From: Escherichia coli
GTDB taxonomy: Bacteria > Pseudomonadota > Gammaproteobacteria > Enterobacterales > Enterobacteriaceae
DNA length: 5,921 nt
Reading direction: 5' to 3' (one strand)
NCBI RefSeq assembly: GCF_003334355.1
Contig: NZ_QOWP01000068.1
Of this stretch, positions 1 to 5,921 are shown in pieces. The position numbers and the translations under genes are program-made. The notes under the pieces were generated by a model. It was given only the letters and a program-made list of their open reading frames with translations. It searched no databases and was not told the DNA's origin. How positions within the stretch are numbered: position 1 is the first letter of the stretch; every line of letters starts with the position of its first letter.

Positions 1-125
1 TGCAGTTGCCATGTTTTACGGCAGTGAGAGCAGAGATAGCGCTGATGTCCGGCAGTGCTTTTGCCGTTACGCACCACCCCGTCAGTAGCTGAACAGGAGG
101 GACAGCTGATAGAAACAGAAGCCAC
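1..125 (-). CDS. insA: IS1 InsA, N-terminal fragment (truncated by the window edge)
   Basis: Minus-strand GTG at 125-123, then codons translating [41 protein letters not shown]; the CxxC...CxxC zinc-finger-like pattern matches InsA as I recall it. Confidence 0.8.
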
Positions 126-157
126 TGGAGCACCTCAAAAACACCATCATACACTAA

Positions 158-180
158 ATCAGTAAGTTGGCAGCATCACC
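158..180. repeat. IS1 terminal inverted repeat (IRL), 23 bp
   Basis: atcagtaagttggcagcatcacc is the reverse complement of GGTGATGCTGCCAACTTACTGAT, and an imperfect inverted match to the repeat at 5845-5867. Confidence 0.85.
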
Positions 181-315
181 CGATGTGACTATGATCGTAT
201 CCGGTGAGTACAGCTTTGATCCAAAGGCTGGTTTTCTGTGATGATTGACCAGCCTCAGAGTATTGATGACACCACCGTTCATAACAGATCGGCATTACTA
301 TGCATAAGTACTGTC

Positions 316-1368
316 TCATATTCTCGCCAAAACACTTTTTAATGCCTTTGCGAATTCATCCAGACTTATATTGTCAATTTTTTGCCCAACGACGACTGAC
401 TCCGAAACATCGGCCATTGCGGGCCATCGCGTTTTGTAATCAGCATAAATTGCAACAACGGGAGTATTATAGGCACTTGCCATATGTAATATTGAGGTGT
501 CAGGAGTTATTGCGATATAAGCATCTTTTATGATTGCTGCTGAACGTTTAATCGAGGGTGATAAGGATAAACGGTAGACATTATTATAACAATCCACTAA
601 TACCCTGGCTTTATCTTCCCCTTTTGGTCCATGAACGATCACTATTGGTATATCTGTTTCACTTTGAATTTTTGCTATTAGATTTTCTGCAATCGATAAT
701 GAAAATGTACGTTCCTGCGAGCTACCTTCTAAATTAAGCGCAATGTAAGATCCTAACGATCGCATTTCCTCGCGCACCTCATCGAGTACATCCTCACTTA
801 GTGGCAATTCATATATTGGCCTGACTGCTGGAAAACCCGCCTCACGCATCATAAATGCCCATGTCATGGGTACAGGAGCCCGGAGATTCTGATCCATCCG
901 GGACGCGTTCTTGCACAAAGGGGAGTAGCACTTCATGGTTAAACCAACAACCTGAAAATTCGTTTTTGCTTTTAACTGACTGATAAATATCATCGTTTTC
1001 AGGTTCTTTTTACGCATCGCCTCTATACAAAGATCCGGCGTACCGTATTGCTGTGTTATGTTCTTTGCTAAATCTTTTATTTCTTTTAATGTTGCGTGAT
1101 CCTGCATAGTCATTGTGACTAATGTTAATTTAGTCTTTTCAAGTTTAAGTGCATTAAACACTTCTAAATTAATTGTCGACGTAACAATTAAAAGATGCTT
1201 AATTTTATGCAATTCAAGCGCCCGAATAACAGGAAAGATGGCCATAGCATCGCCAATCTGGTCGGGAATATGGATAACAACAAACTCTGTTTTTTCAATA
1301 TTAAAATTATAAGCTTTATAATCGTAGTAACTAAATGCAATACGTCTCAACAATGATGCTAAAAACAT
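316..1368 (-). CDS. yeeL: Glycosyltransferase family 9 (ADP-heptose:LPS heptosyltransferase-like) protein; YeeL-like
   Basis: Single uninterrupted minus-strand frame ending in TGA at 318-316. The N-terminal region (VVIHIPDQIGDAMAIFPVIRAL) resembles the GT9 'GD' motif region, and the C-terminal region (ITPDTSILHMASAYNTPVVAIYADYKTRWP) resembles the conserved GT9 DSGpmHlAaA...P-x-valfG block. Start is uncertain: the ORF track opens at a TTG (1431); the first in-frame ATG is at 1368-1366, preceded by GGGAGG/GAGG, which gives 350 aa. Position next to shiA matches the yeeL locus. Confidence 0.75.
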   Translation of the reverse strand: MFLASLLRRIAFSYYDYKAYNFNIEKTEFVVIHIPDQIGDAMAIFPVIRALELHKIKHLLIVTSTINLEVFNALKLEKTKLTLVTMTMQDHATLKEIKDLAKNITQQYGTPDLCIEAMRKKNLKTMIFISQLKAKTNFQVVGLTMKCYSPLCKNASRMDQNLRAPVPMTWAFMMREAGFPAVRPIYELPLSEDVLDEVREEMRSLGSYIALNLEGSSQERTFSLSIAENLIAKIQSETDIPIVIVHGPKGEDKARVLVDCYNNVYRLSLSPSIKRSAAIIKDAYIAITPDTSILHMASAYNTPVVAIYADYKTRWPAMADVSESVVVGQKIDNISLDEFAKALKSVLARI

Positions 1369-1682
1369 ACCTAACCTCGCCTCCCTACTGGTTATAATGC
1401 ATTGCAGTCTATCAGACTCATCATGGCGCAATTTTGTGCATATGCGGACTTTTATGTTTCATATCTCGAACCTGTGGGTCCTCTGCTTAATCCTTAAACA
1501 ACACCAGCAACTCCTGCGCTTTCATCTTCCAGCGAATTTTTCATGTTGCCGTTAATCGGCCATAAAATCATTTGCAGATGCGCTCTGTCGAGGTAGTCTC
1601 ATAAGGTTCGTTTATAGATCGACGGCAATGTGAGTTACCTTTTCCATACTAATTATAAAAAGACAGTACAAACAGGATCATT

Positions 1683-2999
1683 ATGGACTCCACGCTCATC
1701 TCCACTCGTCCCGATGAAGGGACGCTTTCGTTAAGTCGCGCCCGACGAGCTGCGTTAGGCAGTTTCGCTGGTGCCGTCGTCGACTGGTATGATTTTTTAC
1801 TCTATGGCATTACCGCCGCACTGGTGTTTAATCGCGAGTTTTTCCCGCAAGTAAGCCCGGCGATGGGAACGCTCGCCGCATTTGCCACCTTTGGCGTCGG
1901 ATTCCTTTTCCGTCCGCTCGGCGGTGTCATTTTCGGTCACTTTGGCGACCGACTGGGACGTAAGCGCATGTTAATGCTGACCGTCTGGATGATGGGCATC
2001 GCGACAGCCTTGATTGGTATTCTTCCTTCCTTCTCGACCAGTGGGTGGTGGGCACCTATTTTACTGGTGACGCTGCGTGCCATTCAGGGATTTGCCGTCG
2101 GCGGCGAATGGGGAGGCGCGGCGTTGCTTTCCGTTGAAAGTGCACCGAAAAATAAAAAAGCCTTTTACAGTAGCGGTGTACAAGTTGGCTACGGTGTAGG
2201 TTTACTGCTTTCAACCGGACTGGTTTCATTGATCAGTATGATGACGACTGACGAACAGTTTTTAAGCTGGGGCTGGCGCATTCCTTTCCTGTTTAGCATC
2301 GTACTGGTACTGGGAGCATTGTGGGTGCGCAATGGCATGGAGGAGTCCGCGGAATTTGAACAACAGCAACATTATCAAGCTGCCGCGAAAAAACGCATCC
2401 CGGTTATCGAAGCGCTGTTACGACATCCCGGTGCTTTCCTGAAGATTATTGCGCTACGACTGTGCGAATTGCTGACGATGTACATCGTTACTGCCTTCGC
2501 ACTTAATTATTCAACCCAGAATATGGGGTTACCGCGCGAACTTTTCCTCAATATTGGTTTGCTGGTAGGTGGATTAAGCTGCCTGACAATTCCCTGTTTT
2601 GCCTGGCTTGCCGATCGTTTTGGTCGCCGCAGGGTTTATATCACAGGCGCGTTAATCGGAACGTTGAGCGCATTTCCTTTCTTTATGGCGCTTGAAGCAC
2701 AATCTATTTTCTGGATAGTTTTCTTCTCCATAATGCTGGCAAACATTGCGCATGACATGGTGGTGTGTGTGCAACAACCGATGTTTACCGAAATGTTTGG
2801 TGCCAGTTATCGCTATAGTGGCGCTGGAGTCGGTTATCAGGTTGCCAGTGTGGTTGGCGGTGGATTTACACCTTTTATTGCCGCTGCACTCATCACTTAC
2901 TTTGCCGGGAACTGGCATAGCGTCGCCATTTATTTGCTGGCTGGATGCCTGATTTCCGCAATGACCGCTTTGTTGATGAAAGACAGTCAACGCGCTTGA
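1683..2999 (+). CDS. shiA: Shikimate/dehydroshikimate transporter ShiA (major facilitator superfamily)
   Basis: 438-aa ORF with ATG at 1683 preceded by AGGA. MFS motif-A-like sequences GHFGDRLGRKRM and LADRFGRRRV are present, and the protein is hydrophobic throughout. The sequence is recognised as E. coli ShiA from memory. Confidence 0.93.
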   Translation: MDSTLISTRPDEGTLSLSRARRAALGSFAGAVVDWYDFLLYGITAALVFNREFFPQVSPAMGTLAAFATFGVGFLFRPLGGVIFGHFGDRLGRKRMLMLTVWMMGIATALIGILPSFSTSGWWAPILLVTLRAIQGFAVGGEWGGAALLSVESAPKNKKAFYSSGVQVGYGVGLLLSTGLVSLISMMTTDEQFLSWGWRIPFLFSIVLVLGALWVRNGMEESAEFEQQQHYQAAAKKRIPVIEALLRHPGAFLKIIALRLCELLTMYIVTAFALNYSTQNMGLPRELFLNIGLLVGGLSCLTIPCFAWLADRFGRRRVYITGALIGTLSAFPFFMALEAQSIFWIVFFSIMLANIAHDMVVCVQQPMFTEMFGASYRYSGAGVGYQVASVVGGGFTPFIAAALITYFAGNWHSVAIYLLAGCLISAMTALLMKDSQRA

Positions 3000-3005
3000 T
3001 AGCCT

Positions 3006-3045
3006 GGCGAAGATCATCCGATCTTCGCCTTACACTTTTGTTTCA
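3006..3045 (+). terminator. Candidate intrinsic terminator downstream of shiA
   Basis: Perfect 9-bp stem GGCGAAGAT (3006-3014) / ATCTTCGCC (3021-3029) with 6-nt loop CATCCG, followed by the T-rich tract TTACACTTTTGTTT. Begins 7 nt after the shiA stop. Confidence 0.45.
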
Positions 3046-3100
3046 CATTTCTGTGACATACTATCGGATGTGCGGTAATTGTATGGAACAGGAGACACAC

Positions 3101-4555
3101 ATGAATAATAAGGGCTCCGGTCTGACCCCAGCTCAGGCACTGGATAAACTCGACGCGCTGTATGAGCAATCTGTAGTCGCATTACGCAACGCCATTGGCA
3201 ACTATATTACAAGTGGCGAATTACCTGATGAAAACGCCCGCAAACAAGGTCTTTTTGTCTATCCATCACTGACCGTAACCTGGGACGGTAGCACAACCAA
3301 TCCCCCCAAAACGCGCGCATTTGGTCGCTTTACCCACGCAGGCAGCTACACCACCACGATTACTCGCCCTACTCTCTTTCGTTCGTATCTTAATGAACAA
3401 CTTACGTTGCTGTATCAGGATTATGGTGCGCATATCTCTGTGCAACCCTCGCAGCATGAAATCCCCTATCCTTATGTCATCGATGGCTCTGAATTGACAC
3501 TTGATCGCTCAATGAGCGCTGGGTTAACTCGCTACTTCCCGACAACAGAACTGGCGCAAATTGGCGATGAAACTGCAGACGGCATTTATCATCCAACTGA
3601 ATTCTCCCCGCTATCGCATTTTGATGCGCGCCGCGTCGATTTTTCCCTCGCACGGTTGCGCCATTATACCGGTACGCCAGTTGAACATTTTCAGCCGTTC
3701 GTCTTGTTTACCAACTACACACGTTATGTGGATGAATTCGTTCGTTGGGGATGCAGCCAGATCCTCGATCCTGATAGTCCCTACATTGCCCTTTCTTGTG
3801 CTGGCGGGAACTGGATCACCGCCGAAACCGAAGCGCCAGAAGAAGCCATTTCCGACCTTGCATGGAAAAAACACCAGATGCCAGCATGGCATTTAATTAC
3901 CGCCGATGGTCAGGGTATTACTCTGGTGAATATTGGCGTGGGACCGTCCAATGCTAAAACCATCTGCGATCATCTGGCAGTGCTACGCCCGGATGTCTGG
4001 TTGATGATTGGTCACTGTGGCGGATTACGTGAAAGTCAGGCCATTGGCGATTATGTACTTGCACACGCTTATTTACGCGATGACCACGTTCTTGATGCGG
4101 TTCTGCCGCCCGATATTCCTATTCCGAGCATTGCTGAAGTGCAACGTGCGCTTTATGACGCCACCAAGCTGGTGAGTGGCAGGCCCGGTGAGGAAGTCAA
4201 ACAGCGGCTACGTACAGGTACTGTGGTAACCACAGATGACAGGAACTGGGAATTACGTTACTCAGCTTCTGCACTTCGTTTTAACTTAAGCCGGGCCGTA
4301 GCAATTGATATGGAAAGTGCAACCATTGCCGCGCAAGGATATCGTTTCCGCGTGCCATACGGGACACTACTGTGTGTTTCAGATAAACCGTTGCATGGCG
4401 AGATTAAACTTCCCGGCCAGGCTAACCGTTTTTATGAAGGCGCTATTTCCGAACATCTGCAAATTGGCATTCGGGCGATCGATTTGCTGCGCGCAGAAGG
4501 CGACCGACTGCATTCGCGTAAATTACGAACCTTTAATGAGCCGCCGTTCCGATAA
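3101..4555 (+). CDS. amn: AMP nucleosidase (EC 3.2.2.4)
   Basis: 484-aa frame from ATG 3101 (MNNKGSGLTPAQALDKLDALYEQ...), preceded by GGAGA at 3091-3095. The C-terminal half shows nucleoside phosphorylase/hydrolase-fold features (VNIGVGPSNA, AIDMESATIAAQG). The 536-aa ORF in the track starts inside the shiA 3' end and is not accepted. Confidence 0.95.
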   Translation: MNNKGSGLTPAQALDKLDALYEQSVVALRNAIGNYITSGELPDENARKQGLFVYPSLTVTWDGSTTNPPKTRAFGRFTHAGSYTTTITRPTLFRSYLNEQLTLLYQDYGAHISVQPSQHEIPYPYVIDGSELTLDRSMSAGLTRYFPTTELAQIGDETADGIYHPTEFSPLSHFDARRVDFSLARLRHYTGTPVEHFQPFVLFTNYTRYVDEFVRWGCSQILDPDSPYIALSCAGGNWITAETEAPEEAISDLAWKKHQMPAWHLITADGQGITLVNIGVGPSNAKTICDHLAVLRPDVWLMIGHCGGLRESQAIGDYVLAHAYLRDDHVLDAVLPPDIPIPSIAEVQRALYDATKLVSGRPGEEVKQRLRTGTVVTTDDRNWELRYSASALRFNLSRAVAIDMESATIAAQGYRFRVPYGTLLCVSDKPLHGEIKLPGQANRFYEGAISEHLQIGIRAIDLLRAEGDRLHSRKLRTFNEPPFR

Positions 4556-4822
4556 TAAGTTCTGAACCTTCTCATCAGAAATAGATGTGAAGGATTAAGT
4601 AAGACATCTGGCAAATAGCCTGCAATCAACGCGGGCTGTTTGCTTCCTTGGGCAGATGCGAGTTTCATTATCGTCTTAATGATTTCCGCATATTAAAAGC
4701 ATGTATGCTTTCAAAATATAATTATAAAAAATCCCGCCAACAACATTAGTTTTTATAAAACAAAATATAAGATTATGGCTTTAGAATATTTTTATTTCTA
4801 ATAGACGAGATTTTTCCGGTTA

Positions 4823-4831
4823 TGATATAAT
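4823..4831 (+). promoter_or_regulatory. Candidate extended -10 promoter element for yeeN (TGATATAAT)
   Basis: TGnTATAAT at 4823-4831, about 66 nt upstream of the yeeN GTG, within a 342-bp AT-rich intergenic region. No convincing -35 at 17-bp spacing, which is compatible with an extended -10 promoter. Prediction from sequence only. Confidence 0.35.
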
Positions 4832-4897
4832 ATGCTGATTTAACACATGTTAACGATTTACCAGTAATGTAAATAAATTTTCGAGGAGATCATTCCA

Positions 4898-5614
4898 GTG
4901 GGACGTAAATGGGCCAATATTGTTGCTAAAAAAACGGCTAAAGACGGTGCAACGTCTAAAATTTATGCAAAATTCGGTGTAGAAATCTATGCTGCTGCTA
5001 AACAAGGTGAACCCGATCCAGAATTAAACACATCTTTAAAATTCGTTATTGAACGTGCAAAGCAGGCACAAGTTCCAAAGCACGTTATTGATAAAGCAAT
5101 TGATAAAGCCAAAGGCGGCGGAGATGAAACGTTCGTGCAGGGCCGTTATGAAGGCTTTGGTCCTAATGGCTCAATGATTATCGCCGAGACATTGACTTCA
5201 AATGTTAACCGTACGATTGCTAACGTTCGCACAATTTTCAATAAAAAAGGCGGCAATATCGGAGCGGCAGGTTCTGTCAGCTATATGTTTGACAATACGG
5301 GTGTGATTGTATTTAAAGGATCAGACCCTGACCATATTTTTGAAATTTTACTTGAAGCTGAAGTTGATGTTCGTGATGTGACTGAAGAAGAAGGTAACAT
5401 TGTTATTTATACCGAACCTACTGACCTTCATAAAGGAATCGCGGCTCTAAAAGCAGCTGGAATCACTGAGTTCTCAACAACAGAATTAGAAATGATTGCG
5501 CAATCTGAAGTTGAGCTTTCCCCAGAAGATTTAGAAATCTTTGAAGGGCTTGTTGATGCCCTTGAAGATGACGACGATGTACAAAAAGTTTATCATAACG
5601 TCGCAAATCTCTAA
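4898..5614 (+). CDS. yeeN: YebC/PmpR-family protein (DUF28), YeeN
   Basis: 238-aa ORF with GTG start at 4898 preceded by GAGGAG (4882-4887). The N-terminus [27 protein letters not shown] parallels the YebC-family N-terminus (GHSKWANIKHKK...), and the tail is acidic (EDDDDVQKV). Recognised as E. coli YeeN from memory. Confidence 0.93.
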
Positions 5615-5623
5615 TTATATTTT

Positions 5624-5660
5624 AAAGAAATCTGTCTTTACGGCAGATTTCTTTAATCTC
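5624..5660 (+). terminator. Candidate intrinsic terminator downstream of yeeN (AT-rich hairpin, possibly bidirectional)
   Basis: Inverted repeat AAAGAAATCTG (5624-5634) / CAGATTTCTTT (5644-5654), 11 bp perfect with a short loop, followed by TTTAATCTC. The stem is AT-rich so strength is uncertain. Begins 10 nt after the yeeN stop. Confidence 0.45.
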
Positions 5661-5844
5661 ATATAACCCTTATAAAAAATATAATGTTCAACTCGTCATA
5701 TTGATTATAAAAAATCCCCGTTCCCAGAGAAATAATATTTATTAAAATTCCAGTTCTTCTTTTTCTGATTACAGAAGGCAAAGTGGCAATTACGCATAGT
5801 TTCCCGATAAAGACGCGATAGCGACATCCCGCATAAGGCATTTT

Positions 5845-5867
5845 GGTAATGACTCCAACTTATTGAT
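5845..5867. repeat. IS1 terminal inverted repeat (IRR), 23 bp
   Basis: ggtaatgactccaacttattgat; differs from the repeat at 158-180 at a few positions, as expected for IS1 IRL versus IRR. Confidence 0.85.
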
Positions 5868-5921
5868 AGTGTTTTATGTTCAGATAATGCCCGATGACTT
5901 TGTCATGCAGCTCCACCGATT
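5860..5921 (-). CDS. insB: IS1 InsB (transposase C-terminal part), 3' fragment truncated by the window edge
   Basis: Minus-strand reading gives ...SVELHDKVIGHYLNIKHYQ followed by stop TAA (complement of 5862-5860), matching the InsB/InsAB' C-terminus from memory. Confidence 0.75.
   Translation of the reverse strand, partial: SVELHDKVIGHYLNIKHYQ

Follow-up and report, generated by a model that had tools for sequence, protein, structure and literature searches.

IS1 is an element of about 768 bp whose insA and insB' frames yield a DDE_Tnp_IS1 transposase through a programmed -1 frameshift, and its insertion generates a target-site duplication (TSD) of 8-9 bp. The inverted repeats at its two ends measure about 23 bp each and were taken here as GGTAATGACTCCAACTTATTGAT (IRR) and GGTGATGCTGCCAACTTACTGAT (IRL). 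The presence of a TSD indicates a standard insertion, whereas its absence points to recombination between IS copies or to an adjacent deletion (PMC11708052). As for the chromosomal interval in which the present IS1 is found, the paper that links yeeN with asnW is about the islands located at asn-tRNA genes, rather than about the spacer between these two genes (PMC7232551).

We analysed a stretch of 5,921 nt of Escherichia coli DNA (contig NZ_QOWP01000068.1 of assembly GCF_003334355.1), hereafter referred to as the window, in which the sequence downstream of yeeN runs into an IS1. According to the original prediction, yeeN is succeeded on the K-12 map by asnW and yeeO, both in the opposite orientation, an order that we confirmed in K-12. 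It left two alternatives: either an IS1 was inserted ahead of the tRNA gene or an IS1-mediated rearrangement removed or relocated the asnW-yeeO side. The comparisons described below sustain the first, through collinearity with K-12 and through the complete genome of strain PSS-12, and lend no support to the second. The junction is most likely an ordinary insertion polymorphism, and it is already known and annotated in a public genome. The features discussed throughout the text are collected in Table 1.

Table 1. Features of the window, in window coordinates, followed by the IS1 sites sampled in or next to the yeeN-asnW interval, given as nucleotides past the yeeN stop codon
Feature	Position	Strand	Remarks
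Second IS1, IRL-proximal 180 nt	1-180	-	IRL motif at 163-180, IRL ends at 180; window starts inside the element
Chromosomal segment	181-5844		5,664 bp flanked by IS1 ends in direct orientation
Tail of the yeeJ-yeeL spacer	start of the 181-5844 segment		From annotation
GT9/yeeL	319-1371	-	Family-9 glycosyltransferase; gene name from annotation
shiA	1683-2999		Gene name from annotation
amn	3101-4555		Gene name from annotation
yeeN	4898-5614	+	Intact; YebC/PmpR family, NCBIfam NF009044, E 1.7e-105
Proximal part of the convergent yeeN-asnW spacer	5615-5844		230 nt, 31.7% G+C; collinear with K-12 2057575-2057801
Perfect 15-bp hairpin	5622-5656		Directly 3' of the yeeN stop; 188 nt from IS1 and untouched by it
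Open frame of 60 codons	5659-5841	-	From the ORF list; remnant of a 69-codon frame
Target-site copy GGCATTTT	5837-5844		Adjoins IRR; equals K-12 2057794-2057801, single copy there
IS1 end, IRR-proximal 77 nt, IS1A-like	5845-5921	-	IRR motif; window ends inside the element
IS1 site	+84		ET151
IS1 site	+140		CP8-3_Sichuan
IS1 site	+191		CFS3273, 98202
IS1 site	+231		PSS-12 and the window
IS1 site	+256		BEC1-S17
IS1 site	+390		YSP8-1
IS1 site	asnW-yeeO spacer		MS 85-1

Two IS1 ends bound the window

At the right-hand side, the IRR (GGTAATGACTCCAACTTA, approximately 5845-5867) has its first nucleotide exactly at 5845. The minus strand carries the 3' end of insB, whose stop codon is at 5860-5862, and the C-terminus of InsB, ending in SVELHDKVIGHYLNIKHYQ, was read from 5860-5919. 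These terminal 77 nt show no difference from the IS1A copy annotated in PSS-12. The end of yeeN, the length of the spacer and the start of the IRR given in the original prediction were all borne out by the ORF list and the IRR motif.

The entry in the original prediction carried no link to the left-hand end of the window, which lies within an IS1 as well. On this left-hand side, the reverse complement of IRL closes the element, and the 5' part of insA is found on the minus strand, from which 41 codons of the InsA N-terminus were read. The left IS1 has the same orientation as the right one. Of each copy, one side is contained in the window, and the portions of the reading frames that can be seen are the InsA N-terminus and the InsB C-terminus. 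The left IS1 is located in the spacer between the convergent yeeJ and yeeL genes, where window position 181 lies 127 nt past the yeeJ stop (PSS-12 coordinates). Not one of 5,426 complete E. coli genomes, among them PSS-12, contains the left junction (180/181) in one piece, and exact-junction scans retrieved it from neither the genome nor the metagenome contig collections; the right junction gave no hit in the genome contigs. The 180 nt visible on the left are identical to the IRL end of the IS1 that PSS-12 carries between yeeN and asnW.

With both of its ends within IS1 and a right-hand overlap of exactly 77 nt, the window probably represents an entire short-read contig broken at repeats, albeit the overlap on the left is 180 nt and not 77 nt, so this reading of the contig ends is not fully tidy. 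Within the segment enclosed by the two elements, the glycosyltransferase gene (351 codons, with weak similarity to heptosyltransferases) is intact both here and in PSS-12, while yeeL is annotated as a pseudogene in K-12.

The spacer between yeeN and asnW

In K-12 MG1655, yeeN ends at 2,057,574 and asnW occupies 2,058,027-2,058,102, leaving a spacer of 452 bp between them. The pairwise alignment proposed in the original prediction showed that the 230 nt following yeeN in the window are collinear with the first 227 bp of this longer spacer (220 out of 230 columns identical, with a single 3-nt indel). The break point of the IS1 falls just after K-12 position 2,057,801, from which 225 nt are left to asnW.

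A tRNA-Asn gene had been expected in the window, and no sequence resembling one had been seen in 5615-5844. The latter observation holds: ARAGORN detected no tRNA in the 5,921 nt, Rfam yielded no tRNA match in the whole window even at E<=1, and the T-arm motif of asnW (GGTTCGAGTCC) and its reverse complement (GGACTCGAACC) are absent from both strands. The expectation does not, given that asnW begins 452 nt after yeeN in K-12 and would lie past 5615-5844 even in the absence of any IS. The window contains no asnW because its sequence stops within the IS1, ahead of that distance.

The Rfam scan of the whole window at E<=1 returned two matches, both below threshold and both rejected as chance: OrzO-P, on the hairpin downstream of yeeN (25.3 bits, gathering score 60, E 0.87), and Thr_leader (23.6 bits, gathering score 55). 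A type I toxin-antitoxin system or a small gene in the spacer was likewise considered and rejected, as PMC7232551 deals with islands and not with this spacer, and as the 60-codon frame is not conserved. As a separate observation, the distal half of the K-12 spacer, which lies beyond the window, includes a stretch with a hairpin, CTCACTGAAGCGTGAG (approximately 7870-7960 of the K-12 locus), that is almost invariant in ten strains, whereas the proximal half is variable. This stretch may belong to the 3' trailer of asnW or represent another functional RNA.

The perfect hairpin that follows yeeN has a folding energy of -18 kcal/mol (z -8.06), a value that none of 200 shuffled sequences equalled, and it is kept in ten strains. 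Its U-run lies mostly within the stem, and a simple consensus terminator scan made no call. We regard it as the probable terminator of yeeN, possibly acting in both directions since it is symmetrical. A terminator-like hairpin of asnW is found on the opposite side of the IS1 in PSS-12.

The same junction in a complete genome

An 80-nt probe spanning the right junction, with 40 nt of spacer and 40 nt of IS1, was searched in the 5,426 complete E. coli genomes. It was retrieved in one piece from a single genome, that of PSS-12 (NZ_AP027697.1), which differs from window positions 181-5921 (5,741 nt) by one SNP, at window position 3381. In that strain, the IS1 is present in full, with 768 bp. Its annotation reads IS1A family transposase with programmed frameshift, and it is flanked by an 8-bp direct repeat of GGCATTTT, the second copy of which directly follows the IRL end. 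Beyond the IS1, 225 bp of spacer lead to asnW, followed by yeeO, asnU, cbl, nac, asnV, ldtA and cobTSU, as in K-12. The synteny check that the original prediction had proposed for yeeO, asnU, cbl and nac thus returned, in PSS-12, the normal order, with a spacer that is collinear and continues to asnW past the element. Together, the TSD and the intact synteny indicate that the IS1 entered PSS-12 by simple insertion, the outcome that the original prediction had set down as refuting a rearrangement.

Additional sequences were found through an exact-protein look-up of the 60-aa frame, which led to three draft contigs (L015-L017), none of them spanning the IS1. Two of these (L016 and L017, from GCA_043238235.1 and GCA_043238335.1) are 99.96% identical to the window and end at window position 5842, as is consistent with the same right-hand insertion breaking their assemblies. 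They support a scenario in which the right-hand insertion is shared and strain-specific IS1 gains came later. Both contigs also contain a divergent IS1 variant (L016 5099-5417 and L017 5099-5174; 97.5% identical over the first 80 nt), located inside GT9/yeeL at window position 741. The third contig (L015, ABYNAX010000027.1 of GCA_049246015.1) belongs to another haplotype, 98.9% identical with 62 mismatches. Its end (contig positions 1-60) falls at window position 5843, at most 1 nt from the insertion site, and could reflect a repeat that inserted independently at this very nucleotide.

IS1 insertions across the interval

Chimeric probes, composed of the yeeN 3' end, IS1 and the asnW region, detected IS1 in or next to the yeeN-asnW interval in approximately 222 out of 5,426 complete genomes, 192 in the orientation seen in the window and 30 in the opposite one. 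This count is matched by the state of the K-12 spacer, which is in one piece in 5,190 out of 5,415 genomes and split in the remaining 225. We sampled at least seven distinct IS1 sites (Table 1), each with a clean TSD of 8-9 bp, and asnW was kept in all of them. Their location at different nucleotides indicates that they arose through independent events. The case of CP8-3_Sichuan is illustrative: it differs from the window by one SNP (position 968) as far as its own IS1, whose junction falls at window position 5754. That two near-identical sequences carry their IS1 at +140 and at +231, respectively, indicates recent activity of IS1 in this background.

No IS1 in the opposite orientation was found in one piece at the same nucleotide as in the window, and three genomes carry one approximately 22 nt away, which represents another independent site. 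The 192:30 skew probably reflects the clonal inheritance of a few common insertions. The common orientation of the first loci sampled was discarded as evidence of a bias, as the query itself favoured that orientation. In E. coli 19KM1831 (NZ_CP151026.1; L012, 850-1249), the yeeN-side part of the spacer is found without annotated tRNA-Asn and yeeO, with a gene for a tetratricopeptide-repeat protein in their place. Such an arrangement would amount to a true rearrangement or island at asnW, of the type considered in the original prediction, albeit in a different strain.

Origin of the junction and alternative explanations

The explanation that we favour is that an IS1 transposed into the AT-rich spacer of the convergent yeeN and asnW genes, 230 nt past the yeeN stop and approximately 225 nt before asnW. 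Lying between the yeeN hairpin and the asnW terminator, the insertion would be neutral for both genes. Such a position is in line with the many insertions tolerated in the interval, and the left IS1 likewise occupies a convergent spacer. The genome from which the window derives would later have gained this further IS1 between yeeJ and yeeL, enclosing the yeeL-shiA-amn-yeeN block of 5.66 kb between direct IS1 ends. We assign a probability of roughly 0.8 to this explanation as a whole, a joint figure that takes in a simple IS1 insertion, its presence in the window's genome and in PSS-12 by descent, and an asnW located beyond the element, out of view and not lost. The TSD and the asnW gene on the far side of the IS1 are observed in PSS-12; for the window's genome, they are predicted by comparison with that strain.

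Specific sequences would be expected outside the window. A simple insertion on the right would give an IRL-side junction in which ...GGCAGCATCACC is joined to GGCATTTTTCTCTTTATC (in longer form, ...AAGTTGGCAGCATCACC joined to GGCATTTTTCTCTTTATCTTTGTACGG), with the distal spacer starting as GGCATTTTTCTCTTTATC... and leading to asnW. On the outer side of the left IS1, the IRR end would be joined to ...AATCGCGTT(CGATGTGAC) on the yeeJ side. The corresponding junction would read ...AAGAATCGCGTTCGATGTGAC followed by GGTAATGACTCC, with a duplication of CGATGTGAC (or of 8 nt) if the second element also arrived by simple insertion.

The main competing explanation is that, in the window's genome, the asnW-yeeO side was replaced, either by recombination of one IS1 copy with another or by a deletion or inversion that extended from the right IS1 into adjacent DNA. 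The DNA past 5921 would in that case be something other than the remaining spacer. The second IS1 is a reason to consider it: IS1 ends lie at both sides of the window, one being specific to its genome, and direct IS1 copies 5.66 kb apart are a substrate for recombination. Moreover, strains similar to PSS-12 contain 20 or more places matching IS1, IS-associated deletions with no TSD occur frequently (PMC11708052), the zone of the asn-tRNA cluster is known for its plasticity (PMC7232551), and 19KM1831 shows no asnW after the spacer. Against it, the sole complete genome with the right junction displays a textbook insertion, with TSD and intact synteny, the window differs from that genome by one SNP in 5.7 kb, and all seven IS1 copies sampled in the interval are simple insertions. 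With nothing positive in favour of a rearrangement in the window's genome itself, we consider it unlikely.

Similarly improbable, in our view, is the proposal that the yeeN-asnW spacer is a preferred target of IS1 and that the direct IS1 pair makes yeeL-shiA-amn-yeeN a mobilisable or amplifiable unit of the Tn9 kind. The points behind it are the many independent insertions, the skew in their orientation and the draft contig of the other haplotype that breaks at most 1 nt from the insertion site.

We regard as very unlikely a further reading, in which yeeL-shiA-amn-yeeN plus IS1 already exists as a Tn9-like composite unit, be it tandemly amplified, circular or carried by another replicon, such that both ends of the window might belong to a single IS1. 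The direct orientation of the two ends agrees with it, as does the identity of window positions 1-180 with the IRL end of the PSS-12 copy between yeeN and asnW, and assembly of a circle or of tandem units would yield precisely such a contig. However, each of the inner junctions occupies its native chromosomal position, and a circle of this type without a replication origin would not persist. The segment 181-5844 had nine matches in the plasmid collection, 95-99% identical, seven of which are records of 0.39-4.9 Mb containing the whole segment, the other two being partial; the collection held neither an IS1-bounded mobilised unit nor a small plasmid with the segment.

The remaining alternative concerns the 60-codon frame on the minus strand, described in the original prediction as having no recognisable features. 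The frame is present and matches no family in NCBIfam or Pfam. In uninterrupted genomes, it starts ten codons earlier (MKYRTKIKRK-MPYAG..., 69 aa), and the IS1 removes that start. Its homologues are sporadic 'hypothetical' calls in Escherichia and Shigella, of 36-96 aa and with differing C-termini. The frame is shifted or truncated in four out of ten strains (O157:H7, 19KM1831, ET151 and JJ1886), and is left unannotated in K-12, PSS-12, JJ1886, O157:H7 F8092B and SMS-3-5. It is most likely a chance open frame in AT-rich DNA rather than a gene. That it is a real small-protein gene decapitated by the IS1 is extremely improbable: it stays open in K-12, SMS-3-5, PSS-12 and several others, the 3-nt indel that separates the window from K-12 preserves the frame, and it is occasionally called as a protein, but it is broken in the four strains mentioned, the called lengths are inconstant, it lacks both a family match and an annotation in K-12 or in the PGAP records examined, and six other IS1 insertions have occurred in or near it at no evident cost.

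Significance and comparison with known systems

The insertion carries little biological weight. Set between two convergent genes, past the end of each, it should affect neither of them. In practice, it can serve as a lineage marker, the junction being common to PSS-12 and, apparently, to two draft assemblies. It also illustrates that a neighbour that seems to be missing at the edge of a sequence can lie past the repeat that ended it. With the direct IS1 pair as substrate, shiA-amn-yeeN could be deleted or amplified, which would be relevant only if such a derivative were observed.

Compared with known systems, the arrangement resembles a Tn9-type composite transposon in having two direct IS1 ends around a segment, here of 5.66 kb. 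It differs from it in that each IS1 occupies a native position with respect to the reference order, with no sign that the unit has moved; of both elements, the inner ends are those seen. With the other IS1 copies in the interval, the insertion shares the element and the AT-rich spacers. Each of those copies has a TSD of 8-9 bp and retains asnW; they lie at other nucleotide positions and, in several cases, in other strain backgrounds. PSS-12, unlike the window's genome, has no IS1 in the yeeJ-yeeL spacer, and it is in PSS-12 that the far side of the right-hand element is visible; the junction itself is identical in the two in sequence, position and orientation, and is embedded in 5.7 kb of flanking DNA that differ by one SNP.
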